Shown piece by piece: positions 3,001-28,627 of a stretch of 64,000 bases of DNA (positions within the stretch are counted from its first letter, which is position 1; each line of letters starts with the position of its first letter). Below the pieces are notes generated by a model. The model was given only the letters and a program-made list of their open reading frames with translations. It searched no databases and was not told the origin of the DNA. The stretch is from NCBI GenBank assembly GCA_000002435.2, contig CM018790.1, one strand, 5' to 3'. The stretch is from Giardia intestinalis. Its lineage: Eukaryota. A program made the position numbers and the translations under genes.

Positions 3001-5083
3001 TTGTGCCACCAGGACTAAGCTTAATTGTTACGTTTGCATCCGTGCCTCTTCTTAAAACAACATTGTCTGTGAATTCATCTGGAAGCTGCTGGGCAGCAAC
3101 TTTAACAAAGTTTAGTTTCCCATCGTCTTCGTAAATGGAGTACACAACCAGCATCCCTCCGAAGGTAATGCCGTAAACAAAGGGAGAACAACAGGCGCAT
3201 ACTTGAAACTTGAGGCTCTCCACGTCAGAAAGTATTAGACTTGGACAGGAACCAACGATCACCTCCAACGTACCTTCCTGTGCAAGAGACACGATGCAAA
3301 TCGACCCTGTTTCCAGTGTCATAATGTCGAATCTGGTTGGCTTGGTTGTGGGTTCTGCCGTGTGCCAAGATAGTTCAGGATTGAGTTGTGCCGGGTCAGA
3401 GCCGATTAAAATAAGCTTTGAATACCTTATTTTGCTATTAGATAAATAGCCAATTGCCCCGTCAGAAACTGCAAATTGAGATGGTTCACCATTCAGGTCA
3501 ATAAGAGTCGAGAGCTTGTATGCCTTTGGAGGAGCCATGGGATTTGCCAACACAAAGCTGAGGGATGCCACACTAGGGCTGGCCAATGAGAGACAGAAGA
3601 CCACACCTTTTTTGTGATCAAACACGGAGGCCTCGCTAACAGATTGATCAAGGTAGCATACGTCTGGTGGGTTCAGTGGAACACTAACTTGCCAGAGTAC
3701 CACATTAGTTGTCAGCATTACAGTCACAACACCGTTGGAAAACGCAACGGCACAAAGACCTCTATTAAAAAGACTATGGGAAATATTAACAGGATAACCA
3801 GTTATGCCCGGAAATGTGGGGTTTTTGCCGAAAAGGAGGTAGGGGGTTTCCTGGGTAGGATTGTGGAGATTAACTACCGAGAAGCCTCGTTCCACCGGGA
3901 GAACAAGCTTGTCTCCCGTACCTAGGACGGAAAGAAATCCAATTCCGTGGCACGTGCTCACTCCCTTCATTATATATTCGGTGAGGCTGTTTATTCCATT
4001 TGCATTGTCCTGGAGCCCCACCTGATCGTTCATCTCTTCAATGTAACCATTGTACGTTCCAGTTGATCCTGAAACGGATAACTTAATAGCGTTTCGTTGC
4101 CACATGATGGCTCCAAACCTTGTCACGTGTGCATCTGTTGATAGATTAAATCCTACTTTAGATCTGTCTAGTGAAACGCGAAGTATCAACGCATTAGAAA
4201 ATAGTACAAAAATCGAGGGAGGAATAGAGGCAGTTCGTGGACAGTACACCATATCAATTAACGTGTCTGCCCCCACATCTGGTAGATTGAGAATCGCACA
4301 GCCATCTATGCCGTTGACTACCGCAGTGAATAAATTCTTGCTATCCAATGTCTCTGCAGACCACATCTCTGGCACGGTGGAGATAATGATGAGTTTGTAT
4401 CCGGGTTCATATGATACCTGCGAGTCTGAGTGACTTTTTTTCATGATAGAGGGATGGAAGAAGGCTGGGACTGCAACCGCATCTATGCACTCATTGGTAT
4501 CTATAAGAATTTCTATTGGAAGAAGCTTGCCCAGAAAGAGACAGCCAAGAGCCTTTTGCTTTAAGGTGGCCTGAGTGTTTCCATCACTGTCAGATACTAT
4601 CAGACTCTCTGCAGACAAGGAAATGATCCGGTGGGTAGAAATAGTATGACAAACGGAAACCAACCTGCGAACATGCTTGGTCATTTGGGGGACACGCTTG
4701 GTAGTGTGCGGGTCATACGTAAAAATATGCCCCTGGCCGGTACCAATTACCAGTTGTCGCTCTAGCGTATTCCATGATAAACACGTTGGATCTGTAACGT
4801 CTAGCATCAGCTTGATTAAGCTTTTCTGAGATGAGGACCATATTCTCACTAGCTGTGAGCCAGAGCATAGTACAGCGAAGTATGCTCCATTGGGTGACCA
4901 CATCACGTCCAGAATAGTGGAGTTTTCAGTCGGGATCTTGTCCACTAGAGCCCCATCCTTCGTATAAAAAGTAACTTGGGTCCGTGCGGCAACGGCCAGT
5001 ATGTCATCCCTTGGTGACCACGACAGCATCACTGGCCGATTACCATGTCTATCTCCTTTGATCTGAAATTTAAGATGCATCAC
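1..5083 (-). CDS. IFT172: Intraflagellar transport protein 172 (IFT172)-like WD40 + TPR/alpha-solenoid protein, partial. The ATG is at 5081-5083, and the C-terminus lies beyond the window start.
   Basis: The minus-strand frame is open from the ATG at 5083 to position 1, because no ORF ending at 5083 appears in the track. So at least 1694 aa are visible. The N-terminus reads MHLKFQIKGDRHGNRPVMLSWSPRDDILAVAARTQVTFYTKDGALVDK..., which aligns with the human IFT172 N-terminus as I remember it ([53 protein letters not shown]). WD-repeat beta-strand patterns are followed by helical TPR-like sequence. Only IFT172 among the IFT WD/TPR proteins reaches this size. Confidence 0.55.
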   Translation of the reverse strand, partial: MMHLKFQIKGDRHGNRPVMLSWSPRDDILAVAARTQVTFYTKDGALVDKIPTENSTILDVMWSPNGAYFAVLCSGSQLVRIWSSSQKSLIKLMLDVTDPTCLSWNTLERQLVIGTGQGHIFTYDPHTTKRVPQMTKHVRRLVSVCHTISTHRIISLSAESLIVSDSDGNTQATLKQKALGCLFLGKLLPIEILIDTNECIDAVAVPAFFHPSIMKKSHSDSQVSYEPGYKLIIISTVPEMWSAETLDSKNLFTAVVNGIDGCAILNLPDVGADTLIDMVYCPRTASIPPSIFVLFSNALILRVSLDRSKVGFNLSTDAHVTRFGAIMWQRNAIKLSVSGSTGTYNGYIEEMNDQVGLQDNANGINSLTEYIMKGVSTCHGIGFLSVLGTGDKLVLPVERGFSVVNLHNPTQETPYLLFGKNPTFPGITGYPVNISHSLFNRGLCAVAFSNGVVTVMLTTNVVLWQVSVPLNPPDVCYLDQSVSEASVFDHKKGVVFCLSLASPSVASLSFVLANPMAPPKAYKLSTLIDLNGEPSQFAVSDGAIGYLSNSKIRYSKLILIGSDPAQLNPELSWHTAEPTTKPTRFDIMTLETGSICIVSLAQEGTLEVIVGSCPSLILSDVESLKFQVCACCSPFVYGITFGGMLVVYSIYEDDGKLNFVKVAAQQLPDEFTDNVVLRRGTDANVTIKLSPGGTICAIYRTGAKIRPCFYLPAEGILINDARYSRILSEEASNDSFESVSLLFKEEPECIYDITFDSLLANTFVITTCTKIGSDCLPANSYVCVLHHSLPEQEGYGILAVKASVATSSSTTLPTIVAGGMGFVLDGAELRQRDYISGLQSFATCLAFYDNSASFGAPRPLLLKGDDIEDNTSQKDDLFMSYYSYLAPLQDSLLQYTGQEFNSVPFKISGLFPKYRSLKAAGLLQEYEKAAVELGTIGHTKLAFILASVSGNTDVMKYVADSAVRITDFSTALTAYRELSLYGTTEEHVMHSLGTYQDTTFLDSRGAQGVNDLLRNLSTMNTTHSNDPAALSLFLSRICINEYDNNTAMALSLLMACPDLPASGDNSSNVAFAMGQSKADVYLSAAERFLLKSRKPNVALSFRMDSLDWNTASMLATRIGSTAVRSEILIQWAGELENRLQYPECLDVCMNLLKDDSKQGQESGEARFMWSSIPPKLIPFLIGLMSRCYAQLGKLSDLKEMALPPRKEATNRFVPRVKDPLNILQRSRLCMECGNILCLQKRFAEAALFLEASSNLAEACYSRLRKEIAGLLSGELNIYAYIYNSTDTNMIRVGGNRGGGSGIQGTGGTKPLLLFALIPSLLTTIANSALSQTASGDSSGIDISIVKEIDAVLNVEATKKLLSELLPTSIQDIVQEKDLKEIDPPLLLSRAVGCYIKSRQYGEAERLIDNVTDMNIVADLARVYMKDDPDKALVLFKRAGQSREIVDCLIALGKISEAESAVKETKLLLEKAHAGERTTLAVYELEAELKGSSASLSLYHRTAGNIKKAIFFGVLSGAFDEAFDLAIQTSNEDILIRLVNERAPQEFLKKAVRYFSAPVTRSNPDISPLDETPETSSQPLQVPRNIRAAAHFLELLGEHEAAIKLLLHYGDGSTDIDKALDLLKSCKQSVSIIELILKYLNGELDGCKRPPLYVFKFYMAMEKYGDAARTAYLLADREIEAGRYSKAKSVLIQCA

Positions 5084-5187
5084 GAAGGGGCCAATTAATT
5101 TTTGGCCATTTACTCTGCTTCACCGAGGCTGGTTTGCCAGCTGCTATCCGAGCAAGTCTCACGCGAACTACCACTCCAAGCAAAGCC

Positions 5188-5212
5188 CAAGATCCAGAAT
5201 CTGAAAGTCGGA
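5188..5212 (+). repeat. 20-bp motif GATCCAGAATC(T/C)GAAA, copy 1.
   Basis: The sequence aagatccagaatctgaaagtcggattcc recurs at 22885-22906 in direct orientation and at 21775-21800 in reverse orientation (gatttcggattctggatctc). Confidence 0.6.
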
Positions 5213-5294
5213 TTCCATCCAGCTCTGGTGAGAAAAGAAGACTTTATTTTCATCTCCCTAGGAGCTGTTGCTATTCCTCCCAGCGCCTTCTAAG

Positions 5295-5445
5295 ACTTCC
5301 TCTTCCTCCGACCAGTTATGGGCAGCCAGGACTCAGTTCGCCTCTGCCAGCCAAGCACCCCAAGTCCTATTTCTTGTCGAGGGATTCACATGGGTCACGT
5401 GTGGGTCCGTCTGGACAGGCGGGGCGAGTGATTAGTGCCATCACT
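5295..5445 (-). repeat. Short dispersed repeat element of about 150 bp, copy A, in reverse orientation. The outer palindrome boundary falls inside it.
   Basis: The reverse complement of 5340-5445 reads ggcactaatcactcgccccgcctgtccagacggacccacacgtgacccatgtgaatccctcgacaag...ggctggcagaggcg, which is shared with 20925-21014 and 22997-23100. The outer 45 bp (5295-5340) is a diverged match to 23100-23140. Confidence 0.7.
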
Positions 5446-8400
5446 GGCTTCAAGCTCTCCGTTGCTCTGGGAGCTCCTTGAGACCGGCCAGGAAGGAGGC
5501 CTCCTGCCCCTCAGTGCTCTTACACCCAATGTTGACCGTCGAGCATAGCGCTTCGCTAGGTCTGTCGCCTCTGTGACTACCCTGTCGCGTCACTGTCATC
5601 GGCATGGGCAGTGAGTGGAGTATCTCCTTCAGCTCCTGGTGAGCAGGTTCTGTACCACGCAGTATGGGGGCATGCGCAGGGCCCCGAGGGACCGAGTCCA
5701 GGAGTGCAGCGCGTCCCAGCCGGAGGAAGGCCTCGACGCAGCTCCTCGGGACGGGGCACACTTGCCTGGGAGAGGCCGTCTGCTGTTGGGGCTCTCGTTA
5801 TGTCGAGCGAGGCCGCCGTGCCCATCAGCTTGTGTCTCCCTGTGCCATGCGAACACCACCCATGTGCAATCGGTGGAACGCAGTCTGCTCTGTCTCGAGG
5901 AAGGCCAGTGTCTGGGTCTCCAGGGGGCTCGGGACTGCCTTGTGGAGCGCATCATGATCGTCCCCTGATCGTGGTTGTCCTGTCTCGTTCTTGGGAAGAG
6001 GGCAGAACAAAAGTTCTTCTCCCGTCGGAGTCGCTTGGCACTTGAGTTCGAACTTTGGGTTTTGATCTTGGCCAATGCAGGGATGAGGGAGACCTGCTTC
6101 CCCAGAGCGGCGGTGGCTTGCATGGGAAGATCACTCAGATAGCAGGTGACAGCCCCACCCCGGCTAAAAAACTTGAGGCAGCCGTCGCGCCCGCCGCCCC
6201 CAGGACAGAGATTCTGCGTGCATGGCCAGCTGCCCTTGTCAGTTCGGTCTACTGGTCCGGTAGTCTGAGGACCTTCTGCGCCGCTTCTGATGTATGATGC
6301 ATCGCAACTGCTTATAGGGGTAAGCAGCATGAAAAGGCAATTGCATGTGTGGACATTGTACTATGACCGTCTCAGAGGGCCGAAGTCTCCAACTACAGAG
6401 CGCTGCACCGAGCAACACGCCCCACTGCCCTGCGCCGGTGGCTGCCTCCACCACCGTCTTCGTTGCACTTGGGCTGTGCCTGCCCAGCAGACTGAGCAGA
6501 GATTACAGAAGCTTCTCTAATAATGCACACACGCCGCATAAGGTCTGATGATGGAATGGACACCACCTGTCTGAGCTGTCTGCTATTGACGAGAGACAGC
6601 CCTTGGTTGCACTAGAGTGCTTTTGTTTAAGCATAAGGTCTTCGCACCTACTCCCCCATCAGCTATAGCGATAGCTGTATATCCAGAAGGGTCCTGCAGA
6701 GCGTTCCACCGTCTTTCAAGGTAAGGCATGGGCTCCATACCTATAGCTAAAAACAGAAATCCGTGCACCAAGTGTCACGAGTCTAGTATACTGACCGACC
6801 TGAATCGCAGTGCACTTGTCAAGGACCTGTGCACACGTTTGGATGCTCACTGCTAGTGGTAGACGGGCTTGTAAGGAAAATTGCTTCTGGTCGCGCTTGC
6901 CTTATAGTGTTTGATCCTGGGTGGCATGCCTCAGCAAAGGAAGATGCTATTTATATGCATAGAAGGCTATCCATGCACAGTGATTCCTGGAAAGCCGGTT
7001 CGCACGGAGAGGGTAGAGGCCATCAGCAAACCAGTGAGATACACCTGACGCTAGAGAGGCCAGCTACCGGCTCAGATTGCAGTGGTGACACTTGTAGTGC
7101 CCCTCTGACTTCTAAGCATGGAAACGTCACGGGGTCTGTGGGCAAACCGGACGCTCTTTTTGATTTTATACGTTTGTAGCAACGTAGTATTTATTGGGGT
7201 CTGCTTCGTCTGGAGTCGAGGAGGCTCGCTTTCTCTCCACATACAGATTAAGATCGATTGTAGGGGTATACTGTGCAGATCAGTACCAGTCAGTGTGGTC
7301 TCTGTCCACAGGTACCTCACTTGCGTCTTCCCGTGGCAGACATTCACCAACAACACCTCCGGCCTGTGTGGTGTTCTACAGTGTACCTTCACCTTCGACC
7401 AAGGGGCTGGTACACACGTTACGTAATTTAGATTGCTCATCAGTCAGGGTGGTATGGTCCGCTCTTGTTCTCCACTTGCATATCTCGTATAACCTGCTGA
7501 TAGCCTTTCCAGATTAGTATGCAGATGCTTCTATCGGTCCTGTAAGGCATGCGTCATGTAGGTAACCATTACAGGCCAGAGTCCTGTCTGCTAAGGAAAA
7601 GAACCACCAGTTTACCATGTGGACATCCGTTGTGCTCTCCAGTATCTCCTCGCCAGCCGCCATCTAGTTCTCCCTGCCGTTTGGAGCCCGTATGTATATT
7701 GTTACTGACAAGCACTTGGTTTCAATGGGCCCCTGGGACGTTAAGCACTTTACCCTGTGCAGTGGGTATGTTCAATGTGGGAGATACACAATCAGCATTG
7801 ACTTTCTCACTCATTGTTTGTGTAATTATTGTTGCTTCTTAGTCTAATTAGCAACCCAGATCATGGCCTCCAGTGTAGTGGTATTCTACCAACAGACAGC
7901 TGGCAGTGACTGTGGCACGTACTTTCATCAAGACACAGCCACCTGAGCAGGGGTATGAAATGGGTCCTTGTTATTCTACGATTCTGCTAATTCCTCAGAT
8001 AGCAGGGATCAGAGCAGCTTATTGTTAGTATTGACTATCTCCGTGTCTCCATTTATCTTCGTCGCTTGAGATACGCTTGACTCCAAAGACTCGAAAAGGT
8101 GCTATACTGTGCTCAGATCTGCGAGTCTCAATTAAGTAAGGCTACCATCTCGGTGGCTGCGCTGAGGTAGCTACACACCTTGTGGGCTCTGCAAGGTGCA
8201 TTACAGCCCAATGGAACCCTTACCTATCGAATGCAGGCCGCAATGCAGCCTCGCTGGTGCACGATTTCTTAAGATGACTGATCAATCCGCAGAGTCCACC
8301 CTACTCATGTAGAGCCAGCGATAGATGACGATATCAACCCTGTAGATAATCTACACTGTACATCAGTGGTCCTATAGGTAAGTAAGGGTCAGCCATCCCG

Positions 8401-9916
8401 CAGTAATGAGCATTAGCGGTGTCTTTCCCAAGAATAAATGGGCGAGTTGTCAGCAGTCACAACATCCGCTTTCTCAATGAAGACCGCCCTGCCACTGAGG
8501 CCCAGGCCAGTCTCCTATAAGATCCTTGACAAGATTGTATCCAAGATGTATATCTATGGTGCTCCCCGACTCAAGGTGTATGCTGCTGAACCTCCCATTT
8601 CTCGTATCAGCTTATGAATATCGATGTCCCTGCCTCTAGCAGAATTGTATTAGAAATAATATGAGATATGGCGCCTTCAGTCGGGTTGTTCGGATTCCCA
8701 GCTGCACAACGGGGGCCCACTTTCGTATTGTGCATCAGAAAGACATGTCATGCCGTAATGATGCAACCTTTCGTATGGTATAATTCTTGCGTCAAGAGAT
8801 AGGGCACTTGTATCGATCGGCATATCTACCCATGGCCAGTTATAGCTTGGACCAAAGGTCACAAACGAACGCTATCTAACTCCCTTATCAACAGACGGGA
8901 GATCTGACCATCCTTCTGCCTCACACAAAGCCACAAAGGATTCTAGATCAGGATTTCGGCCAGTAGCTGGCAAGTCATTATACTCTCCTGGATTTCTGCT
9001 CCCTCTACTATAGGTATCCACATGTAGGAAGCTCTGAGGGCCTAAAGTCCTACACCAATAGGCTCAGGGTACTGCAAACCCAGGTGTTTTCACTAGTGGT
9101 GGTAGTGATGGTCTCAAGATGATCCAGAAGGGATGACAGGAGTCCTGGTCAATCAACTTAGAAGGTGGCACGGCTTGGTCAGTGATTCTCCTTGTCCAGA
9201 TGCGGGACTGCTTGTCTGCGCCTTCTAAGCTTCACATGGCATCCCGTCATGCGATAGGATATCTTAATAATATTCATTAAAAAAGGCCAGAAATGACACA
9301 CTGTACATCCAACAGACTGCTGCACCTTATTATCTAATCTTTGCCGGTTCACACCTTCCACAAACCCCAGTGGTTGCTGCGATCTTCTCTTAGGATCTCG
9401 TAGGGGTCTTTCATTAAGGGAGGCTCCCCTGTGACGACCAGAGGTCGCAGACATAATCCAAAGGGATGCGAATGCTACGGAGGCGGAGAGAAGGTCATCG
9501 GCGCACGGGGGTCCGCAGGGGCCCGACCCGTCCAGGGAAAGCACAGGGAGCTGGCTTATCAGAGACGCAAAGACGCCAGGAGAAAAGCCAGCAACGAACC
9601 CACGGCACAGTGGAGGCACTCGAGCCGTCCTTTGATTGGCCGCAGGGCAGAGAGGCGGCAAGCGTGTGGAGAGGTCTCACCACTTATTTTTGGATTTTCT
9701 GTTTCCCTGCGTGTTGTGCAGGGAGCATGGGGTTCAGACCCAGGGAGCTCGCGTGGGCTGTATGCAGTAGATGTGCTTAGTATTCGATGAGCTTCTATGC
9801 CCTAAGCAGAGGTATCGTAGAAGACGAATCTCTTTGGATTAATTAGCATAGTGTAGTCAGGTCTTTAGTCTTAAGTATCTTATTCTTACTTATACGACAA
9901 GCTGAGAAGGACCTCA

Positions 9917-11803
9917 ATGTTGCTGGTAGTTTTCTACTTTGTGCTGAGTGCTCTTGCGGGAGCATGTACTGTTGAGGCTAACACACGAGATTGTACAGAG
10001 AATAAGTGCGAAATGGTTGGCGAAACAGAAATCTGTACACAATGCAAGACGGGCGGAAATGTTCCCATTGATGGAGTGTGTAAGGCGGTTGCTGAGGCCG
10101 CCAATAAGTGTACGAAGAGCGATGACAATCCGGTAGGCGCAGGAGATACGACTTGTGGAAAATGCGTAAACGCATACTTCATGTACAAAGGCGGATGTTA
10201 TCTGGCCGGTGCAGCTGGACCGGGTACTGGTACTAAAATGTGCAAGCAGGCTGCTGGTGGCAAGTGTACGCAAGCTGCTGATGCGAAGAACTACTTCATT
10301 CCACCAGCAAATACAGACGATACTCATGATTCTGTCGTTTGGTGCGGTGATGAAATAGGCGTAACACTTAGTAGTACTCAGTATAAGGGTGTTGCTAAGT
10401 GCCTAGTATGTGATGCTCCCGGTGGGGCTGGTGCTGCAACGTGCACAACCTGTGAAGACGGGTACTTTGGTGCTACTTGTAAAAAATGCCATGAAAGTTG
10501 TAGGACATGTGAAGCTGCAGAAGAGAATAAGTGCAAGTCGTGTACAGATGGCTACTTCCTTGGAGCAACCAATGGAGCCGCAGGTAAGTGCCTTAAGTGT
10601 AACTCTAAAACAGAGGAAGGCTGGCACGGAGTTGACAACTGTGCTAAGTGCACGTCATCTAATACGCAAAACACCCCTGCGACATGCACTGAATGCGTTG
10701 CAAATTTCTATCTAAAACCAGCCGCGGGTGCAACTCCTTCTAGTTGCGTCACAGAAACGGGGTGCGGTGACGGATACTTCCCAACTATTGTTGATGAGAT
10801 CAAGAAATGTATCGCTTGCGGTACAGCTGCAAATGGTGGCATAGATGACTGCAAAAAGTGTTCTCTCAAAACAACGTCTGCGAAGGCAGGAATAGAGATC
10901 GTATGCACTGAATGTAATACTAAATGGCTCAGTCCTCTAGGAGACGCATGTTTGGATAGCTGTCCTCCTGGAACACATGCTGATTCTGGCAATATTTGTC
11001 CTTTATGTCATAGCACATGTGCAGAGTGTGATGGCAATGCAGAAGCCACATCGTGCAGAGCATGTTATCCCGGATTTGTGCTGAGTTATGGCAGCGATAA
11101 AGTCAGAGGCACATGTATTCAAGAATGTACCGGCAAATACGCAGAAAATTGTGAAGAAAATATGTGTACGGCTGTCCTTGGAGGCTCCAAGTATTGTAGC
11201 AAGTGTAAGGCCGGATTCGTTCCAATAGATGGTGTCTGTGTATCGACAGCTTCACGAGCAGTAACCGGATGTACGCCAGGAAATGGAGTATGCATTGCAT
11301 GTACAGACTCATACTTCTTACAGTCTGGAGGATGCTATCAGTCGACAGTGTTTCCTGGTAATAAGCTGTGTACACTAGCTAGTAATGGAAAGTGTACAGC
11401 ATGCTCCAACGGGCAAACAGCAGATGGTCAAGGTTCGTGCCCAGCGTGTAATGCCATCTGTGCAACATGTGCGGCAGGAAATATAGACCAATGCCAAACT
11501 TGCTTCCCTGGATACTATAAATCCGGAACTAAGTGCGTAAAATGTAGCATTACTGACAACGGAATAACTGGTGTAGAGAACTGCATAAGCTGTGCCCCTC
11601 CAGCTGGTAATAGTGGTCCTGTCACTTGCTATATGAAGACAGATGACACTAACGATGGTGGTAACGACAACAACGGCGGAAGCACGAACAAGAGCGGGCT
11701 CTCCACAGGGGCCATCGCGGGGATCTCCGTGGCTGTGATTGTTGTTGTAGGTGGTCTCATAGGCTTCTTGTGTTGGTGGTTCATATGTAGAGGGAAGGCG
11801 TAA
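9917..11803 (+). CDS. vsp: Variant-specific surface protein (VSP), 628 aa, copy 1.
   Basis: The ATG is at 9917. The product has an N-terminal signal peptide (MLLVVFYFVLSALAGA), many CXXC motifs, GGCY motifs (KGGCYLAG, QSGGCYQS), and a single C-terminal transmembrane helix (AIAGISVAVIVVVGGLIGFLCWWFI). It ends in the invariant Giardia VSP tail CRGKA, and the stop codon TAA is embedded in ACTTAGGTAGTAAAC. Confidence 0.92.
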   Translation: MLLVVFYFVLSALAGACTVEANTRDCTENKCEMVGETEICTQCKTGGNVPIDGVCKAVAEAANKCTKSDDNPVGAGDTTCGKCVNAYFMYKGGCYLAGAAGPGTGTKMCKQAAGGKCTQAADAKNYFIPPANTDDTHDSVVWCGDEIGVTLSSTQYKGVAKCLVCDAPGGAGAATCTTCEDGYFGATCKKCHESCRTCEAAEENKCKSCTDGYFLGATNGAAGKCLKCNSKTEEGWHGVDNCAKCTSSNTQNTPATCTECVANFYLKPAAGATPSSCVTETGCGDGYFPTIVDEIKKCIACGTAANGGIDDCKKCSLKTTSAKAGIEIVCTECNTKWLSPLGDACLDSCPPGTHADSGNICPLCHSTCAECDGNAEATSCRACYPGFVLSYGSDKVRGTCIQECTGKYAENCEENMCTAVLGGSKYCSKCKAGFVPIDGVCVSTASRAVTGCTPGNGVCIACTDSYFLQSGGCYQSTVFPGNKLCTLASNGKCTACSNGQTADGQGSCPACNAICATCAAGNIDQCQTCFPGYYKSGTKCVKCSITDNGITGVENCISCAPPAGNSGPVTCYMKTDDTNDGGNDNNGGSTNKSGLSTGAIAGISVAVIVVVGGLIGFLCWWFICRGKA

Positions 11804-11817
11804 CTTAGGTAGTAAAC
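11803..11817 (+). promoter_or_regulatory. VSP-type extended polyadenylation signal ACTTAGGTAGTAAAC overlapping the stop codon.
   Basis: The sequence acttaggtagtaaac begins at the last base of the TAA stop. It matches the vsp extended poly(A) signal consensus as I recall it (ACTYAGRTAGTRAAY), and it contains the general Giardia AGTRAAY poly(A) motif. Confidence 0.6.
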
Positions 11818-14536
11818 GCGTTACTTTATGTAACCTATGTAGATGTGCTGCTGGGGCTATCTGAGCGCGGTCCAGAGATCGTGTGGGTAATCATCGCTCC
11901 TTCCTGACCAGTCCAGAGACGATGGCTGGTTGTGAATAATATAACGAGAGAATCCTCTCCAGTGATACCTCCAGAGCCTGGTGCATTCCTCAATCATTTC
12001 GTGGGCGTGTGCTCAGACCGAATGCGTACATCGGTCCTTTAGGGGTTCAGGCCCTCTTGCAGACTCTCTGATCCGCCGGCGCCTCTCCTTGGTCTGCCGC
12101 CTTGGTGGATGAGGCTTGGGTCGCTGTCTTTTTTAGATGCCCCCATCTGTCAGAGGGCTGCCCTCGGGCTCTCTTCTGGCCGCCCCTCGGTGTCCGTCCG
12201 GCTGTGGCCCGGGCAGTGCTTCTACAGTCGCGGTCACTTGGGTATCAGCGGGCCAGCTGGTGGGCGAGGCGGGGTTGGTGAGGCTGGAGGGGACTGGTGG
12301 GGGCTGAGGTGGGCGGTGTTGTATGCGCCCCTGACCTCTTGGTGAGTGGGGTGATCGCAGCTGTTATGACTGGGGGCTGTCCATCTGTGACTCATCCCTC
12401 TGTGTGCTCGTGGTCTGTGAGTGCCTCCACCCAGACAACCCTCAGGAGCCGGAGAGTGGTGCCAGCCTAGCTGTCCTCCCTCCTCGGTGCCTCCCAGTGC
12501 AGACTCACCGGAGGCCACTACCCTGTCAGCCACCCGAAGGAGCCGTGCACGCCGGGACAGAGAGAGTGACCAAGGGGAGTCAAGCAGCCCTGCCATGAGA
12601 GTGCACAGCAACCAGCCTGGACTGTATGGGCTGCTCGAACAGTGGTAGTGGCAGACGACTCCCTCTGACAGCAGCCCTGATGACGGCACTGGCCTGCTCT
12701 TGAGACTGAATGACAGTGAACACAGACGGACATGAGCGCAGGAGGACCATCCACACACGAACAGACTGTGTGGACCCAGAGAGGACTAGGGTCTGCTCAG
12801 ACACACGCTGACTGTGCCCCATACGAGAGTACCAGGCAACCACCCGAGCACCCGAGAGGCAGGTACAGCCACGGGCACTAGAGATCCCCAGCCAGACACA
12901 TTGCCATGCTCATCCACAGGGGCATCAGAGGGCCAGGTGGGGTCACTCTCACAATCAGGGGCCTGATAGGAAGCCAGAGGACCCGAGCAGCACAGCACAG
13001 CAGGCCCAAGGGAGGCACACTCCAGGCAGGTGAGCAGTGGCAGAGCCTTGACAGCTGCCAGCCCCCCATGACACCCAGGCAGGCACCAGACTCCGAAGAC
13101 TCGCTGGCCTCCACCTATGACCCGAGAGGGCAGCAACCAGAGGAGCGAGGAGGCCTTCGGATGACACAAGAGGCCGGCTGTCCAGCGGGCGATGGAGCAC
13201 AGGTGGCCTCTGAGCACCATAAGGCACAGGACTGACCATCAGAGTGATGCCCGGTCACAGAGACGACCACGAGCACCCTCCACCCACTCTGAGGGGCTGT
13301 CGATCATTCACTGCCTCTCATAGCAGACCTCCTTAAGGGCAGTGCAGTGGGTCCCAGCTCATGCAGGAGGGTGCACACCCCTCAGTATAGGACACCCCGA
13401 CTCTCCCCGAGGGGTCATCAGAGCCATGAGAGGTGTCAAGGTCCTGATAGATCACACCGGGAACCCCTCGAATGGGCACAGCAGGTGAGGTATGGGTGAC
13501 CCCAGCGTGCTCCTCTCTGCATGGTAGAGCATCCTGAGACCAAGGGGGTCACCTCTGCCTACGGATAATACACAGCACTCCATGACAAGGACCCACCAGG
13601 AGCAGCACAGCTGACCACGGGGACAGTGCAGTCACCAGTGCCCCACCGTGCCAGTCTTCTGGGCCATCACACTAGAGGCACGAGAGAACCCCATCCCATC
13701 CACCGGCTCATCTATGCCCCTGCTGGCCCGAGGTGAACTAACCTTGTCGAGGCACTGGACAGGGCATGCCAGGGGGCCCAGCAGACCCGCACAGAGCAAC
13801 AGGAGGGGCTGCGATGGCCTGCCTCACCCTTCACGCACCAGCCAGACAGAGCAGCAGTACTGCCTGAGACATGCAGGGGCTAAGGGAGGCGCTCAGTCGG
13901 GGGACACGACACGATCGTCGGTGCCTCTGTCTCGGGAGTGCAACGCAGGCTGGTGATCAGACACAACCACCTTAGCAAACAGAGCGGGGATCACCCACCA
14001 CCGCAATGACCCACCGGACCCAGGGGCGCATACAACACCGCCCACCTCAGCCCCCACCAGTCCCCTCCAGCCTCACCAACCCCGCCTCGCCCACCAGCTG
14101 GCCCGCTGATACCCAAGTGACCGCGACTGTAGAAGCACTGCCCGGGCCACAGCCGGACGGACACCGAGGGGCGGCCAGAAGAGAGCCCGAGGGCAGCCCT
14201 CTGACAGATGGGGGCATCTAAAAAAGACAGCGACCCAAGCCTCATCCACCAAGGCGGCAGACCAAGGAGAGGCGCCGGCGGATCAGAGAGTCTGCAAGAG
14301 GGCCTGAACCCCTAAAGGACCGATGTACGCATTCGGTCTGAGCACACGCCCACGAAATGATTGAGGAATGCACCAGGCTCTGGAGGTATCACTGGAGAGG
14401 ATTCTCTCGTTATATTATTCACAACCAGCCATCGTCTCTGGACTGGTCAGGAAGGAGCGATGATTACCCACACGATCTCTGGACCGCGCTCAGATAGCCC
14501 CAGCAGCACATCTACATAGGTTACATAAAGTAACGC

Positions 14537-14551
14537 GTTTACTACCTAAGT
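14537..14551 (-). promoter_or_regulatory. VSP-type extended polyadenylation signal of VSP copy 2, the mirror image of 11803-11817.
   Basis: It is the reverse complement of the same 15-mer, located at the 3' end of the minus-strand VSP. Confidence 0.6.
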
Positions 14552-16437
14552 TACGCCTTCCCTCTACATATGAACCACCAACACAAGAAGCCTATGAGAC
14601 CACCTACAACAACAATCACAGCCACGGAGATCCCCGCGATGGCCCCTGTGGAGAGCCCGCTCTTGTTCGTGCTTCCGCCGTTGTTGTCGTTACCACCATC
14701 GTTAGTGTCATCTGTCTTCATATAGCAAGTGACAGGACCACTATTACCAGCTGGAGGGGCACAGCTTATGCAGTTCTCTACACCAGTTATTCCGTTGTCA
14801 GTAATGCTACATTTTACGCACTTAGTTCCGGATTTATAGTATCCAGGGAAGCAAGTTTGGCATTGGTCTATATTTCCTGCCGCACATGTTGCACAGATGG
14901 CATTACACGCTGGGCACGAACCTTGACCATCTGCTGTTTGCCCGTTGGAGCATGCTGTACACTTTCCATTACTAGCTAGTGTACACAGCTTATTACCAGG
15001 AAACACTGTCGACTGATAGCATCCTCCAGACTGTAAGAAGTATGAGTCTGTACATGCAATGCATACTCCATTTCCTGGCGTACATCCGGTTACTGCTCGT
15101 GAAGCTGTCGATACACAGACACCATCTATTGGAACGAATCCGGCCTTACACTTGCTACAATACTTGGAGCCTCCAAGGACAGCCGTACACATATTTTCTT
15201 CACAATTTTCTGCGTATTTGCCGGTACATTCTTGAATACATGTGCCTCTGACTTTATCGCTGCCATAACTCAGCACAAATCCGGGATAACATGCTCTGCA
15301 CGATGTGGCTTCTGCATTGCCATCACACTCTGCACATGTGCTATGACATAAAGGACAAATATTGCCAGAATCAGCATGTGTTCCAGGAGGACAGCTATCC
15401 AAACATGCGTCTCCTAGAGGACTGAGCCATTTAGTATTACATTCAGTGCATACGATCTCTATTCCTGCCTTCGCAGACGTTGTTTTGAGAGAACACTTTT
15501 TGCAGTCATCTATGCCACCATTTGCAGCTGTACCGCAAGCGATACATTTCTTGATCTCATCAACAATAGTTGGGAAGTATCCGTCACCGCACCCCGTTTC
15601 TGTGACGCAACTAGAAGGAGTTGCACCCGCGGCTGGTTTTAGATAGAAATTTGCAACGCATTCAGTGCATGTCGCAGGGGTGTTTTGCGTATTAGATGAC
15701 GTGCACTTAGCACAGTTGTCAACTCCGTGCCAGCCTTCCTCTGTTTTAGAGTTACACTTAAGGCACTTACCTGCGGCTCCATTGGTTGCTCCAAGGAAGT
15801 AGCCATCTGTACACGACTTGCACTTATTCTCTTCTGCAGCTTCACATGTCCTACAACTTTCATGGCATTTTTTACAAGTAGCACCAAAGTACCCGTCTTC
15901 ACAGGTTGTGCACGTTGCAGCACCAGCCCCACCGGGAGCATCACATACTAGGCACTTAGCAACACCCTTATACTGAGTACTACTAAGTGTTACGCCTATT
16001 TCATCACCGCACCAAACGACAGAATCATGAGTATCGTCTGTATTTGCTGGTGGAATGAAGTAGTTCTTCGCATCAGCAGCTTGCGTACACTTGCCACCAG
16101 CAGCCTGCTTGCACATTTTAGTACCAGTACCCGGTCCAGCTGCACCGGCCAGATAACATCCGCCTTTGTACATGAAGTATGCGTTTACGCATTTTCCACA
16201 AGTCGTATCTCCTGCGCCTACCGGATTGTCATCGCTCTTCGTACACTTATTGGCGGCCTCAGCAACCGCCTTACACACTCCATCAATGGGAACATTTCCG
16301 CCCGTCTTGCATTGTGTACAGATTTCTGTTTCGCCAACCATTTCGCACTTATTCTCTGTACAATCTCGTGTGTTAGCCTCAACAGTACATGCTCCCGCAA
16401 GAGCACTCAGCACAAAGTAGAAAACTACCAGCAACAT
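14551..16437 (-). CDS. vsp: Variant-specific surface protein (VSP), 628 aa, copy 2. Its amino-acid sequence is identical to copy 1, and the two genes converge.
   Basis: It is the mirror image of 9917..11803 within the palindrome. The translation is 100% identical, including the CRGKA terminus. Confidence 0.92.
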   Translation of the reverse strand: MLLVVFYFVLSALAGACTVEANTRDCTENKCEMVGETEICTQCKTGGNVPIDGVCKAVAEAANKCTKSDDNPVGAGDTTCGKCVNAYFMYKGGCYLAGAAGPGTGTKMCKQAAGGKCTQAADAKNYFIPPANTDDTHDSVVWCGDEIGVTLSSTQYKGVAKCLVCDAPGGAGAATCTTCEDGYFGATCKKCHESCRTCEAAEENKCKSCTDGYFLGATNGAAGKCLKCNSKTEEGWHGVDNCAKCTSSNTQNTPATCTECVANFYLKPAAGATPSSCVTETGCGDGYFPTIVDEIKKCIACGTAANGGIDDCKKCSLKTTSAKAGIEIVCTECNTKWLSPLGDACLDSCPPGTHADSGNICPLCHSTCAECDGNAEATSCRACYPGFVLSYGSDKVRGTCIQECTGKYAENCEENMCTAVLGGSKYCSKCKAGFVPIDGVCVSTASRAVTGCTPGNGVCIACTDSYFLQSGGCYQSTVFPGNKLCTLASNGKCTACSNGQTADGQGSCPACNAICATCAAGNIDQCQTCFPGYYKSGTKCVKCSITDNGITGVENCISCAPPAGNSGPVTCYMKTDDTNDGGNDNNGGSTNKSGLSTGAIAGISVAVIVVVGGLIGFLCWWFICRGKA

Positions 16438-19400
16438 TGAGGTCCTTCTCAGCTTGTCGTATAAGTAAGAATAAGATACTTAAGACTAAAGACCTGACTA
16501 CACTATGCTAATTAATCCAAAGAGATTCGTCTTCTACGATACCTCTGCTTAGGGCATAGAAGCTCATCGAATACTAAGCACATCTACTGCATACAGCCCA
16601 CGCGAGCTCCCTGGGTCTGAACCCCATGCTCCCTGCACAACACGCAGGGAAACAGAAAATCCAAAAATAAGTGGTGAGACCTCTCCACACGCTTGCCGCC
16701 TCTCTGCCCTGCGGCCAATCAAAGGACGGCTCGAGTGCCTCCACTGTGCCGTGGGTTCGTTGCTGGCTTTTCTCCTGGCGTCTTTGCGTCTCTGATAAGC
16801 CAGCTCCCTGTGCTTTCCCTGGACGGGTCGGGCCCCTGCGGACCCCCGTGCGCCGATGACCTTCTCTCCGCCTCCGTAGCATTCGCATCCCTTTGGATTA
16901 TGTCTGCGACCTCTGGTCGTCACAGGGGAGCCTCCCTTAATGAAAGACCCCTACGAGATCCTAAGAGAAGATCGCAGCAACCACTGGGGTTTGTGGAAGG
17001 TGTGAACCGGCAAAGATTAGATAATAAGGTGCAGCAGTCTGTTGGATGTACAGTGTGTCATTTCTGGCCTTTTTTAATGAATATTATTAAGATATCCTAT
17101 CGCATGACGGGATGCCATGTGAAGCTTAGAAGGCGCAGACAAGCAGTCCCGCATCTGGACAAGGAGAATCACTGACCAAGCCGTGCCACCTTCTAAGTTG
17201 ATTGACCAGGACTCCTGTCATCCCTTCTGGATCATCTTGAGACCATCACTACCACCACTAGTGAAAACACCTGGGTTTGCAGTACCCTGAGCCTATTGGT
17301 GTAGGACTTTAGGCCCTCAGAGCTTCCTACATGTGGATACCTATAGTAGAGGGAGCAGAAATCCAGGAGAGTATAATGACTTGCCAGCTACTGGCCGAAA
17401 TCCTGATCTAGAATCCTTTGTGGCTTTGTGTGAGGCAGAAGGATGGTCAGATCTCCCGTCTGTTGATAAGGGAGTTAGATAGCGTTCGTTTGTGACCTTT
17501 GGTCCAAGCTATAACTGGCCATGGGTAGATATGCCGATCGATACAAGTGCCCTATCTCTTGACGCAAGAATTATACCATACGAAAGGTTGCATCATTACG
17601 GCATGACATGTCTTTCTGATGCACAATACGAAAGTGGGCCCCCGTTGTGCAGCTGGGAATCCGAACAACCCGACTGAAGGCGCCATATCTCATATTATTT
17701 CTAATACAATTCTGCTAGAGGCAGGGACATCGATATTCATAAGCTGATACGAGAAATGGGAGGTTCAGCAGCATACACCTTGAGTCGGGGAGCACCATAG
17801 ATATACATCTTGGATACAATCTTGTCAAGGATCTTATAGGAGACTGGCCTGGGCCTCAGTGGCAGGGCGGTCTTCATTGAGAAAGCGGATGTTGTGACTG
17901 CTGACAACTCGCCCATTTATTCTTGGGAAAGACACCGCTAATGCTCATTACTGCGGGATGGCTGACCCTTACTTACCTATAGGACCACTGATGTACAGTG
18001 TAGATTATCTACAGGGTTGATATCGTCATCTATCGCTGGCTCTACATGAGTAGGGTGGACTCTGCGGATTGATCAGTCATCTTAAGAAATCGTGCACCAG
18101 CGAGGCTGCATTGCGGCCTGCATTCGATAGGTAAGGGTTCCATTGGGCTGTAATGCACCTTGCAGAGCCCACAAGGTGTGTAGCTACCTCAGCGCAGCCA
18201 CCGAGATGGTAGCCTTACTTAATTGAGACTCGCAGATCTGAGCACAGTATAGCACCTTTTCGAGTCTTTGGAGTCAAGCGTATCTCAAGCGACGAAGATA
18301 AATGGAGACACGGAGATAGTCAATACTAACAATAAGCTGCTCTGATCCCTGCTATCTGAGGAATTAGCAGAATCGTAGAATAACAAGGACCCATTTCATA
18401 CCCCTGCTCAGGTGGCTGTGTCTTGATGAAAGTACGTGCCACAGTCACTGCCAGCTGTCTGTTGGTAGAATACCACTACACTGGAGGCCATGATCTGGGT
18501 TGCTAATTAGACTAAGAAGCAACAATAATTACACAAACAATGAGTGAGAAAGTCAATGCTGATTGTGTATCTCCCACATTGAACATACCCACTGCACAGG
18601 GTAAAGTGCTTAACGTCCCAGGGGCCCATTGAAACCAAGTGCTTGTCAGTAACAATATACATACGGGCTCCAAACGGCAGGGAGAACTAGATGGCGGCTG
18701 GCGAGGAGATACTGGAGAGCACAACGGATGTCCACATGGTAAACTGGTGGTTCTTTTCCTTAGCAGACAGGACTCTGGCCTGTAATGGTTACCTACATGA
18801 CGCATGCCTTACAGGACCGATAGAAGCATCTGCATACTAATCTGGAAAGGCTATCAGCAGGTTATACGAGATATGCAAGTGGAGAACAAGAGCGGACCAT
18901 ACCACCCTGACTGATGAGCAATCTAAATTACGTAACGTGTGTACCAGCCCCTTGGTCGAAGGTGAAGGTACACTGTAGAACACCACACAGGCCGGAGGTG
19001 TTGTTGGTGAATGTCTGCCACGGGAAGACGCAAGTGAGGTACCTGTGGACAGAGACCACACTGACTGGTACTGATCTGCACAGTATACCCCTACAATCGA
19101 TCTTAATCTGTATGTGGAGAGAAAGCGAGCCTCCTCGACTCCAGACGAAGCAGACCCCAATAAATACTACGTTGCTACAAACGTATAAAATCAAAAAGAG
19201 CGTCCGGTTTGCCCACAGACCCCGTGACGTTTCCATGCTTAGAAGTCAGAGGGGCACTACAAGTGTCACCACTGCAATCTGAGCCGGTAGCTGGCCTCTC
19301 TAGCGTCAGGTGTATCTCACTGGTTTGCTGATGGCCTCTACCCTCTCCGTGCGAACCGGCTTTCCAGGAATCACTGTGCATGGATAGCCTTCTATGCATA

Positions 19401-20924
19401 TAAATAGCATCTTCCTTTGCTGAGGCATGCCACCCAGGATCAAACACTATAAGGCAAGCGCGACCAGAAGCAATTTTCCTTACAAGCCCGTCTACCACTA
19501 GCAGTGAGCATCCAAACGTGTGCACAGGTCCTTGACAAGTGCACTGCGATTCAGGTCGGTCAGTATACTAGACTCGTGACACTTGGTGCACGGATTTCTG
19601 TTTTTAGCTATAGGTATGGAGCCCATGCCTTACCTTGAAAGACGGTGGAACGCTCTGCAGGACCCTTCTGGATATACAGCTATCGCTATAGCTGATGGGG
19701 GAGTAGGTGCGAAGACCTTATGCTTAAACAAAAGCACTCTAGTGCAACCAAGGGCTGTCTCTCGTCAATAGCAGACAGCTCAGACAGGTGGTGTCCATTC
19801 CATCATCAGACCTTATGCGGCGTGTGTGCATTATTAGAGAAGCTTCTGTAATCTCTGCTCAGTCTGCTGGGCAGGCACAGCCCAAGTGCAACGAAGACGG
19901 TGGTGGAGGCAGCCACCGGCGCAGGGCAGTGGGGCGTGTTGCTCGGTGCAGCGCTCTGTAGTTGGAGACTTCGGCCCTCTGAGACGGTCATAGTACAATG
20001 TCCACACATGCAATTGCCTTTTCATGCTGCTTACCCCTATAAGCAGTTGCGATGCATCATACATCAGAAGCGGCGCAGAAGGTCCTCAGACTACCGGACC
20101 AGTAGACCGAACTGACAAGGGCAGCTGGCCATGCACGCAGAATCTCTGTCCTGGGGGCGGCGGGCGCGACGGCTGCCTCAAGTTTTTTAGCCGGGGTGGG
20201 GCTGTCACCTGCTATCTGAGTGATCTTCCCATGCAAGCTACCGCCGCTCTGGGGAAGCAGGTCTCCCTCATCCCTGCATTGGCCAAGATCAAAACCCAAA
20301 GTTCGAACTCAAGTGCCAAGCGACTCCGACGGGAGAAGAACTTTTGTTCTGCCCTCTTCCCAAGAACGAGACAGGACAACCACGATCAGGGGACGATCAT
20401 GATGCGCTCCACAAGGCAGTCCCGAGCCCCCTGGAGACCCAGACACTGGCCTTCCTCGAGACAGAGCAGACTGCGTTCCACCGATTGCACATGGGTGGTG
20501 TTCGCATGGCACAGGGAGACACAAGCTGATGGGTACAGCGGTCTTGCTCGACATAACGAGAGCCCCAACAGCAGACGGCCTCTCCCAGGCAAGTGTGCCC
20601 CGTCCCGAGGAGCTGCGTCGAGGCCTTCCTCCGGCTGGGACGCGCTGCACTCCTGGACTCGGTCCCTCGGGGCCCTGCGCATGCCCCCATACTGCGTGGT
20701 ACAGAACCTGCTCACCAGGAGCTGAAGGAGATACTCCACTCACTGCCCATGCCGATGACAGTGACGCGACAGGGTAGTCACAGAGGCGACAGACCTAGCG
20801 AAGCGCTATGCTCGACGGTCAACATTGGGTGTAAGAGCACTGAGGGGCAGGAGGCCTCCTTCCTGGCCGGTCTCAAGGAGCTCCCAGAGCAACGGAGAGC
20901 TTGAAGCCAGTGATGGCACTAATC

Positions 20925-21063
20925 ACTCGCCCCGCCTGTCCAGACGGACCCACACGTGACCCATGTGAATCCCTCGACAAGAAATAGGACTTGGGGTGCT
21001 TGGCTGGCAGAGGCGGACTGATCCTAACCGCACCGAAGAGTGGAGGCCTGGACCACCTGCCGG
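20925..21063 (+). repeat. Short dispersed repeat element, copy B, at the right outer boundary of the palindrome.
   Basis: ggcactaatcactcgcc...ggcagaggcggactgatcctaaccgcaccgaagagtggaggcctggaccacctgccggg matches 22997-23150 along its whole length with scattered mismatches. The match continues about 50 bp beyond the point where palindrome identity ends at 21014. Confidence 0.75.
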
Positions 21064-21774
21064 GGGTCTGCCGCAGCAGCTGGCAGTGCCTGACACCCTC
21101 GAGTAGACGGGCGCCGGTTGTAGAGAGAGACGGCCTGACGGTGAACCGGTCCTGATCGCTCGTGATGCTTCGGATGACACCCTTCAGAGAGGTGGCCCTG
21201 GACCGACGCCTCAGCAGACCGAAGCATCACCCCAAGCGTGCTGTGCGGTGCAGATGGACCAGCTCATACGTCATTGAGCCAGACGCACTGCATAGAATGA
21301 TGCGCCGACACGATCTCGTACTGGGTGACTGGCCACCTGTAAGAGCGCACTGCGATCCATGAGCAGAGGGGTGGGCCTCCTCCCCCGACACCACCGCATG
21401 GGATTACTCCATCGGCATCCATGAACGCATACTATGACTCCAAGACAGAGGCGCAGGGGGAGCACACCCTTGATAATGGAACAGATGGTGCCCTCCACGA
21501 GGAGGCGAAGAGGCACCCGAGGAACGGGGCAGGCACCCGGGGTCGTGGCGTGGGATCTTCGTCATGGAGCACCAGCACCAGGGCCACGTGGAGGCCAGAT
21601 CGCCGCGACAGACGCAAGACCTGAGATAGCAGGTGCTCAATAGATGTCAGACGATGGTTGACCCCGACGGGCCAGAGGAAGGAAAGTCCTAGGGGGCACC
21701 GCGAGGAGCGGCAGGGACTCCCGAGAGGCAGAGCAAAGTTCCTTCTTCTTCTCCCATCGGAATCGCTACATCCG

Positions 21775-21800
21775 ATCTCAGATTTCGGATTCTGGATCTC
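21775..21800 (-). repeat. 20-bp motif GAGATCCAGAATCCGAAATC, copy 2, in reverse orientation, just 3' of the ankyrin gene.
   Basis: atctcagatttcggattctggatctc is the reverse complement of the motif at 22885-22906. Confidence 0.6.
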
Positions 21801-21832
21801 AACCGATGCAGGGACGGGAGGTACTTGTTTGT

Positions 21833-22591
21833 TCAGGGCGGCGACTCGCACGGGGGATTTACTTGGACAGCAACTAGCAAACTAATCTCAGTGAAACAGG
21901 GTAAACATTGTGATATGATCAGCAAGTAGGCGAGTTCACTCACAAGTTTCCTAGGCTGCATCTGTAAGTATGGATCTACAATACCCTCACTCTCGAGAAA
22001 AGATGCTACCTCGGAGTGATTCCATCTATTGGCCGTACGGATGGCATGTACGCCACCTATGTCCTTCTCCTTCTCCAGTAGCAACTTGACACACTCCAGA
22101 TGATCATGCCCTGCTGCAAGCACGAGGGCAGTAAAACCTCTGCCTTTCTGCATGCCTCCCTCAGCATCCAGGAGTAGTCTCACGACCTCGGTGCGGCCAA
22201 AATGTGCCGCCCACATGAGGGCTGTCCATCCATTACTGCTCCTCATACCGCTCTCGCACCTCATCAGCAGCTTCACCACTCTGGTGTGTCCGAGCACCGC
22301 AGCAACCATCAGGGCCGTCCCCCCACTTATGTCTTTCCTCCCTGCCTTGACAAGCTTCGCCACCATCCTTGCCTGATAAGGGATGTAGCGCTTCACCGCC
22401 TTCACGTCGTTTCGGTTGGCTGCCTTCATAAGCGTGGTGACCCCGTTCTCGTCCACGCTGCCTTCATCATCCATTTCTGAAGGCTCAGTTGGGTTTCCTG
22501 CGCCCTCTTCGCTCGTGTCCCTTTCGGGCATGAGGGGTGGGGCGCAGTCGCACTCCTGAAGGAGTTGACCTAAATCATCCGCAGACGACAT
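21833..22591 (-). CDS. Ankyrin-repeat protein of the Giardia Protein 21.1 type, 252 aa.
   Basis: The ATG is at 22589-22591. The product has at least four ankyrin repeats (GTALMVAAVLGHTRVVKLLM, GWTALMWAAHFGRTEVVRLLL, GFTALVLAAGHDHLECVKLLL and TTLMKAANRNDVKAVKRYI) and an acidic N-terminus. Confidence 0.75.
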   Translation of the reverse strand: MSSADDLGQLLQECDCAPPLMPERDTSEEGAGNPTEPSEMDDEGSVDENGVTTLMKAANRNDVKAVKRYIPYQARMVAKLVKAGRKDISGGTALMVAAVLGHTRVVKLLMRCESGMRSSNGWTALMWAAHFGRTEVVRLLLDAEGGMQKGRGFTALVLAAGHDHLECVKLLLEKEKDIGGVHAIRTANRWNHSEVASFLESEGIVDPYLQMQPRKLVSELAYLLIISQCLPCFTEISLLVAVQVNPPCESPP

Positions 22592-22884
22592 TTTTACTGC
22601 GGGTCACATAGAGCTCGTGTGTCAGTACGCCTGCAATTCCTGGGCCTCTTGCAGCGCATCCAGATGGCGCATCATACAAAGACTGCACCCCTTGAATTCC
22701 TTCCGTCGCCCCTGCTATGTGTAGCAAGGTGCAATGGAGTGACCTTCGGCCGTGGCGTCAGGCACGCTGTGAACAGAAGAGTTCATTCTGCTTCCTCTGG
22801 TTGGTTTGTCAGCTGTTGCCTGAACAGGTCCTCCATGCGAGCCGCCGCCGCCCCAGGCTGGCAGTCTCTCGCTCGCTCACCAGC

Positions 22885-22906
22885 CGAGATCCAGAATCCG
22901 AAATCA
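22885..22906 (+). repeat. 20-bp motif GAGATCCAGAATCCGAAATC, copy 3, lying 90 bp upstream of dispersed element C.
   Basis: gagatccagaatccgaaatcag is present here. Confidence 0.6.
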
Positions 22907-22994
22907 GAAGGTCAGATATCGTCCAGTTCTGACGGGGAAGATCTGTGCCTCCTCCCCGAGGCGGTAGCGAGTACAGATGAGCGTTCGAGGCTGG

Positions 22995-23150
22995 TAATGG
23001 CACTAATCACTCGCCACGCTGGTCGAGATGGACCCACACGTGACCCATATGAATCCCTCGACAAGAGATGGGGCCCCTGGGGTGTCTGGCTGGCAGAGGC
23101 GGACTGATCCTGACCGCACTGAAGAGTGGTGGCGGCCTGGGCCACCTACC
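22995..23150 (+). repeat. Short dispersed repeat element, copy C, in the intergenic region upstream of the ankyrin gene.
   Basis: It aligns directly with 20925-21063 (see copy B). Confidence 0.75.
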
Positions 23151-23282
23151 GGGCATCTATATTGGTGAAACAGGGTAAGTTCTCTTCGCTGAACACCAAA
23201 TATAAGACCCATGCGCAGTGTTCCTCAAAGCGAACAAGGTTTGCTGGCATCAAGAAGAATATCGTCATGAGTAATATGCAGT

Positions 23283-28576: not shown

Positions 28577-28627
28577 TTTTATTTTTATTTTTAGCTTTGG
28601 CTTTGGCTTTAAACAGAAAGCATACAC

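Follow-up and report, generated by a model that had tools for sequence, protein, structure and literature searches.

Genes that encode variant-specific surface proteins (VSPs) drive antigenic variation in Giardia intestinalis, a major human gut parasite, and identical inverted pairs account for ~30% of the intact VSP genes of isolate WB. Such pairs have been counted as 14 (Adam et al. 2010, PMC2996952), 19 (Xu et al. 2020, PMC7000408) and 20 (preprint 10.1101/2022.03.07.483299) in WB, and one inverted pair, vsp1267, comes from a separate study, cited by Adam et al. 2010, that predates the genome assemblies. Adam et al. 2010 (PMC2996952) called identical pairs "interesting, but cryptic". The arrangement is genus-wide, as Giardia muris has seven identical VSP pairs, five of them tail-to-tail (PMC7641422). 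Here we analyse a 64-kb stretch of G. intestinalis WB chromosome 2 ("the window" throughout), in which two arms of 7.0 kb, each carrying one copy of the same VSP gene, mirror each other across a unique spacer. We consider it probable that this VSP locus underwent a true inverted segmental duplication and that the arms of the palindrome have since been kept near-identical by gene conversion.

The protein encoded in both arms matches exactly the consecutive accessions KAE8301981.1 and KAE8301982.1 of WB C6, on a contig of 1,539,535 bp, where they are followed by KAE8301983.1 (ankyrin) and then by GL50803_00101918 at 23283-24242. On chromosome 2, Table 2 of Xu et al. 2020 (PMC7000408) lists the pair d11521/11521, oriented -> <-, with 628 aa and 2747 bp between the genes, while Table 5 of Adam et al. 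2010 (PMC2996952), which derives from the Sanger assembly, lists tail-to-tail gene 126 with a 3' divergence point at 530 nt and a distance of 2748 between the open reading frames (ORFs). Our stop-to-stop interval is 2747 nt, and counting 530 nt from the end of the gene (11803 + 530 = 12333) leads to the inner arm boundary, in agreement with the published divergence point. The locus is therefore the catalogued pair GL50803_00d11521/GL50803_0011521, listed since 2010; as the pair stands in published tables, it is already described and represents no new kind of feature. The original prediction, made by a model from the sequence alone, had placed the locus in an established class of identical tail-to-tail VSP pairs, rightly so, and the present pair is itself among those published. 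In the 2007 annotation, the second VSP copy appears as a 56-aa fragment, its C-terminal end, beside the full gene.

In comparison with the other identical inverted pairs of WB, the palindrome shows the same tail-to-tail orientation, identical ORFs and abrupt flank break 530 nt past the stop codon, likewise lies in a gene-poor, G+C-rich neighbourhood, and does not differ in kind; its 2747 nt of intervening DNA fall within the 2-4 kb by which identical pairs are defined. G. muris pairs differ in having NEK, ankyrin or zinc-finger genes, or their remnants, in between, whereas the present spacer contains no recognisable coding remnant. The 2010 table gives no 5' divergence point for tail-to-tail pairs; here it lies 4584 nt upstream of the ATG, which makes the arm 7.0 kb long. 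Beyond the literature, our analysis adds modest refinements: the extent of the arms, a gradient in their differences, the identification of a parental arm, the absence of the locus from assemblage B, and a hint of concerted evolution. The locus is a clean case in three respects: a duplicated unit of 7 kb rather than of one gene, an identifiable parental arm, and a position in lineage-specific DNA.

Structure of the palindrome

A repeat search found a single long inverted pair in the window, 5333-12333 and 14021-21021 (7001 nt each), separated by a unique spacer of 1687 nt, and sensitive self-BLAST of the window detected no further long repeat. The arms originally proposed (5340-12333 and 14021-21014, 6994 nt) are correct as the stretch inside the first mismatch, and the proposed 1687-nt unique spacer was recovered as well. 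Base-by-base comparison confirms that the arms are essentially identical, though not perfectly so: they differ at 6 of 7001 positions (99.914% identity; left/right 5338/21016, 5809/20545, 5812/20542, 5817/20537, 5820/20534 and 6115/20239). All six differences are transitions and all fall within the outermost 783 nt, leaving the inner 6218 nt (6116-12333) without a single difference. Confinement of all six to the outer 11% of the arm has P ~2e-6 when they are counted as six events, and P ~1e-3 when the four clustered changes are taken as one (three events). An inverted repeat of 7 kb cannot have arisen by chance.

The four clustered differences are packed into 12 nt (5809-5820 / 20534-20545). 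Four separate mutations seem a poorer explanation of so tight a cluster than the copying of a short patch from a paralogous repeat, or an error in polishing. The claim that all ORFs are mirrored in the opposite arm with unchanged translations stands for the VSPs and fails for the 233-aa ORF at 5629-6330 / 20024-20725, whose two versions differ at 2 residues.

The spacer is asymmetric, with base fractions of A.24, C.32, G.30 and T.145. By BLAST within the window it matches only itself, and sensitive BLAST detects no internal symmetry; local alignment finds weak inverted symmetry limited to the first and last ~60 nt, with a score equalled by 3-8 of 500 shuffles. Neither exact look-ups of the spacer ORFs nor a search for relatives of the 174-aa junction ORF returned a homologue, so nothing indicates that the spacer is coding. 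It matches no Rfam family or tRNA, and scans of positions 1-24500 for Rfam families, tRNAs and tandem repeats gave no matches.

Palindromes are a known failure mode of assemblers, identical pairs have ended contigs prematurely (Adam et al. 2010, PMC2996952), and such pairs were once questioned as artefacts (preprint 10.1101/2022.03.07.483299), so that a contig collapsed or mirrored in error, or a chimera due to an adapter missed in PacBio sequencing, has to be weighed. We regard either as very unlikely. Sanger and PacBio assemblies place the divergence point alike, at 530 nt, and give spacings of 2748 and 2747 nt, and the inverted vsp1267 pair was described before genome assemblies existed. 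A missed adapter would produce a perfect palindrome without a 1687-nt asymmetric unique spacer, both ends of which join arm sequence here, and the arms carry six copy-specific differences. Each arm also adjoins a different gene, syntenic in other isolates, and an independent Illumina assembly breaks at the arm boundary, as described below.

Probable upkeep of arm identity by gene conversion

One contig from another assemblage-A isolate (SRR18693200; L010) bears on the age of the palindrome. Over 5360 nt it agrees with the window at 99.09%, and it stops at window position 5362, 30 nt into the left arm. Logan contigs were presumably built with k=31, and a de Bruijn graph of that k lets a unique flank run k-1 nt into a repeat before the contig breaks. 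An end exactly k-1 nt into the arm thus implies that the isolate, too, has the 5332/5333 junction and another copy of the arm end. If the repeat predates this ~0.9% split and its arms evolve independently, ~64 differences between them would be expected, against the 6 seen. Put as identities, the arms agree at 99.914% and WB and the other isolate at 99.09%, where sharing of the palindrome is read only from the contig end 30 nt inside the boundary. Given this deficit, together with the confinement of differences to the outer edge, ongoing arm-to-arm gene conversion is likely, and favoured over very recent duplication; as the mechanism of upkeep, conversion is what we infer from these sequence comparisons. 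Recurrent intrachromosomal conversion from arm to arm would homogenise the arms and would be least effective at their outer edge.

The same identity would be explained by one inverted duplication of very recent date in the WB/AI lineage, after which nothing has homogenised the arms and they are alike through youth; 99.914% is typical of a young duplicate. Adam et al. 2010 (PMC2996952) proposed relatively recent duplication and transposition for identical pairs, and the locus is absent in assemblage B. We nevertheless hold this explanation to be unlikely, for three reasons: the contig of the ~0.9%-diverged isolate breaks exactly k-1 nt inside the left arm, which implies an older junction; the differences are restricted to the outer 783 nt rather than evenly spread; and ~20 pairs in WB plus 7 in G. 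muris are all identical, so that coincident recent events would be hard to accept. Of the two origins first proposed for the arm identity, very recent duplication or ongoing conversion, the second gains from the contig boundary and the outer-edge differences and the first is disfavoured; the near-identity of the arms is probably due to continuing gene conversion rather than to youth.

Several points weigh against this interpretation. The argument for conversion draws on one contig end in one other isolate, and that end marks a repeat boundary and says nothing of the orientation or length of the partner. The arm sequences compared come from WB alone, and the contrast of within-genome with between-genome identity is thus an indirect one. 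In a ~1.3%-diverged assemblage-A isolate, the right-hand contig (L001) ends at 21654 rather than at the arm boundary, and the right junction may differ there. The evidence for the structure as a whole is at the level of assemblies. Finally, contigs from two more distant lineages (L013, ERR3333380; L014, ERR3333382) extend beyond the start of the WD40 gene that flanks the palindrome on the left by 74 and 206 nt before they end, and the short sequence preceding that gene matches neither the WB nor the assemblage-B arrangement. Assemblage A may have gained the segment or assemblage B may have lost it; the site upstream of the WD40 gene may be a recurrent synteny break.

The human Y palindromes P1-P8, large and maintained by arm-to-arm gene conversion, offer a parallel: they likewise have arms of >99.9% identity, a unique spacer and members of multi-copy gene families, and in the present case, too, arm identity may exceed between-lineage divergence. 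They range from 9 kb to 1.45 Mb, against 7 kb here, and conversion in the present case is argued from a single boundary observation rather than from arms compared across species. No meiosis is known in Giardia. Cruciform extrusion, raised in the original prediction, is doubtful, as it would be unlikely across a spacer of 1.7 kb; inversion of the spacer through an exchange between the arms is plausible. If conversion is indeed at work, Giardia preserves selected antigen genes through intrachromosomal recombination, and the near-identity of the arms has a bearing on VSP read mapping, expression counts and copy-number estimates.

Parental and derived arms

A third, diverged partial copy of the arm's outer end lies beyond the right arm (22994-23153). 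Its alignment runs through the right arm boundary (21021) to ~21064, whereas against the left arm it halts at the boundary, and at mismatch 5338/21016 it has its base in common with the right arm. Base composition is informative as well. T makes up 14.5% of the + strand both in the spacer and at the inner end of the right arm, the inner end of the left arm being the mirror (A 14.5%), so that composition flips abruptly at 12333/12334 and not at 14020/14021. At the other end, the outer part of the right arm grades smoothly into the right flank, and the left flank is unlike the left arm. These three independent observations indicate that the right arm is the parental one and the left arm a derived copy, and hence give the ancestral order as left flank, spacer, arm, right flank.

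Under the duplication that we favour, the original sequence would have run without interruption from the spacer through the right arm into the right flank. A 7.0-kb unit, made up of the VSP gene, 530 nt of its 3' flank and 4.6 kb of upstream DNA that is non-coding and in part repeat-derived, would have been copied in reverse orientation beside itself, the inverted copy coming to lie between left flank and spacer. Offset microhomology at the junctions amounts to no more than 4 nt (TCCT), and the arm ends have no target-site duplication (flanks AGGAC on the left and TCCTA on the right).

The third copy is also found in the ~1.3%-diverged assemblage-A contig L001. With 20910-21064 it forms a direct repeat that brackets the ankyrin gene, the two elements lying 2084 nt apart. 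Two WB-like short-read contigs (L005 and L006) begin at 23060, inside the third copy, which suggests further exact copies of the element elsewhere in the genome.

The VSP genes

The 628-aa ORF encodes a canonical VSP, which matches Pfam PF03302 with E=1.8e-91 (307.4 bits against a cut-off of 31.4), contains 72 Cys (11.5%), 24 CXXC and 2 GGCY motifs, and ends in a hydrophobic transmembrane anchor followed by CRGKA; the N-terminus, MLLVVFYFVLSALAGAC, is hydrophobic by eye. Its start codon lies within an initiator of the form PyAATGTT, a VSP motif described in a preprint (10.1101/2022.03.07.483299). The two ORFs are convergent and show 0 differences in 1887 nt, and the complete 628-aa VSP predicted in each arm, with stop codons 2.7 kb apart, is thus borne out by domain match, motifs and spacing. 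The direct consequence of the palindrome is two identical copies of one antigen gene in a gene-poor, lineage-specific island, and nothing demonstrates a further function.

The closest paralogue (P0001, 81% identical in amino acids) belongs to the pair 137714/11470, which is itself tail-to-tail, lies on chromosome 5 and has its members 2669 nt apart (Xu et al. 2020, PMC7000408). Identity to this paralogue is mosaic: residues ~86-375 are ~98% identical and the N- and C-terminal parts only ~55-65%. Such a pattern is indicative of recombination or conversion involving two palindromic VSP loci that lie on separate chromosomes.

Upstream and downstream flanks

That the duplicated unit is far larger than the gene and includes non-coding upstream DNA was anticipated in the original prediction, and holds: 4.58 kb upstream of each VSP yield no credible Pfam domain in six frames (searched as 5333-9916), and these 4584 nt harbour no annotated protein, as the accession numbers leave no gap between the VSP pair and the ankyrin gene. 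A sub-threshold Crystallin N match in 5333-9916 was dismissed (E=0.0056; 17.2 bits against a cut-off of 23.2). The 233-aa ORF was likewise rejected as a gene, its only relatives being short, frame-shifting ORFs of the withdrawn 2007 over-annotation; for this reason it marks a dispersed repeat and not a protein. The repeat itself, a G+C-rich outer segment at 5629-6330 (mirrored at 20024-20725), has at least 5 diverged paralogous copies in WB, which correspond to the short ORFs GL50803_4520, _35155, _39017, _29761 and _115525 of the withdrawn annotation.

Parts of both flanks recur at another VSP locus. The last 740 nt before the VSP match, at 79% identity, the DNA that precedes a VSP paralogue (64% aa identity) in another assemblage-A isolate (L015, L016), and the 3' flank of that paralogue (L015) aligns over at least 370 nt with the 530-nt flank at ~74%. 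At a single-copy VSP in compact DNA (L017), homology ends 16 nt past the stop codon. Long flanks are therefore a trait of some VSP loci only, and the reported resemblance among upstream regions of VSP pairs (preprint 10.1101/2022.03.07.483299) fits such a subset.

A possible common cassette

Spacing is similar across the published pairs. All 12 tail-to-tail pairs in Table 2 of Xu et al. 2020 (PMC7000408) lie 2526-2813 nt apart, and the spacers that we computed from Table 5 of Adam et al. 2010 (PMC2996952) measure 1677-1698 nt in four pairs, with 1688 for the present one. Together with the tail-to-tail arrangement of the closest paralogue, these similar spacings hint at a common cassette rather than independent events. 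More speculatively, and to our minds quite improbably, tail-to-tail VSP palindromes could be copies of one putative propagating cassette with a fixed, possibly functional centre. This centre would consist of a ~515-560-nt 3' flank and a ~1.6-1.7-kb asymmetric, G+C-rich and strand-biased spacer. Read-through of the poly(A) signals could yield a long RNA that folds into a perfect hairpin, with VSP sense and antisense strands joined by a loop, and that would feed the Dicer/Argonaute pathway implicated in VSP silencing; alternatively, the centre might promote the conversion that keeps pairs identical. Among the titles and abstracts searched, no link of inverted VSP pairs to hairpin RNA was found.

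Flanking genes and other lineages

The DNA to the left of the palindrome is not empty: a long minus-strand WD40 gene starts at 5080, with its ATG 252 nt from the left arm. In L011 and L012, two assemblage-B-like contigs with 75-79% identity to the window, the WD40 gene comes directly after the orthologue of GL50803_00101918, and the intergenic gap measures 5 nt by gene calls or 77 nt if counted to the conserved ATG. Both palindrome and ankyrin gene are thus lineage-specific DNA.

That an 18.2-kb segment is missing from assemblage B, that ~120-nt imperfect inverted repeats occur near its ends (5327-5444 and 22994-23112), and that transposon relics have been described around VSP pairs (preprint 10.1101/2022.03.07.483299) could together be read as the mark of a mobile element with terminal inverted repeats that carried the VSP to the site. 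We think this extremely unlikely. Six-frame searches of 5333-9916 detected no transposase, reverse transcriptase or other Pfam domain, the flanks (AGGAC, TCCTA) form no target-site duplication, the short inverted repeats sit 120-220 nt inside the segment edges, and the arms are 7 kb long with a host gene inside. Coordinates of all features are collected in Table 1.

Table 1. Features of the palindrome and its surroundings (positions in the window).
Feature	Position	Strand	Length	Remarks
Left flanking gene	1-5080	-	1945 aa in full	IFT122/WDR19-like WD40 protein; ATG at 5080; runs off the window
Assemblage-A segment absent at this position in assemblage B	5110-23275		18,166 nt	Palindrome and ankyrin gene
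Left arm	5333-12333		7001 nt	Reverse complement of 14021-21021; abrupt breaks of homology and composition at both junctions; probable derived copy
Arm part upstream of VSP	5333-9916, mirrored 16438-21021		4584 nt	Without recognisable coding content
VSP initiator CAATGTT	9915-9921	+		Spans the ATG; mirrored 16433-16439 (-)
VSP copy 1	9917-11803	+	628 aa	GL50803_00d11521 or GL50803_0011521; PF03302
Extended VSP polyadenylation signal ACTTAGGTAGTAAAC	11803-11817	+		Begins at last base of stop codon; mirrored in right arm
Shared 3' flank	11804-12333, mirrored 14021-14550	+	530 nt	Up to the abrupt divergence point
Spacer	12334-14020		1687 nt	Asymmetric; 62% G+C; T-poor on + strand
Right arm	14021-21021		7001 nt	Probable parental copy, in native context
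VSP copy 2	14551-16437	-	628 aa	Every nucleotide as in copy 1
Right flanking gene	21833-22591	-		Ankyrin repeat protein 1, KAE8301983.1
Third, diverged partial copy of arm outer end plus 43 nt of right flank	22994-23153	+		~86% identity

Some further variation is apparent in the window. The ankyrin region (21654-22995) is 93.9% identical between WB and the assemblage-A contig L001, against 98.6% over the adjacent 10.8 kb, and the ankyrin protein has a chromosome-5 paralogue, KAE8306054.1, of at least 90% identity. Further right, 33738-34226 consists of a 36-nt tandem repeat (13.6 copies, 98% identity) inside a 1471-aa ORF (31027-35442); ~1.3%-diverged assemblage-A contigs skip ~375 nt of it, so that copy number differs between isolates. 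The Sad1/UNC-domain protein encoded at 26036-28627 also varies, with 846 aa in WB-like contigs and 862 aa in ~1.3%-diverged assemblage-A contigs.

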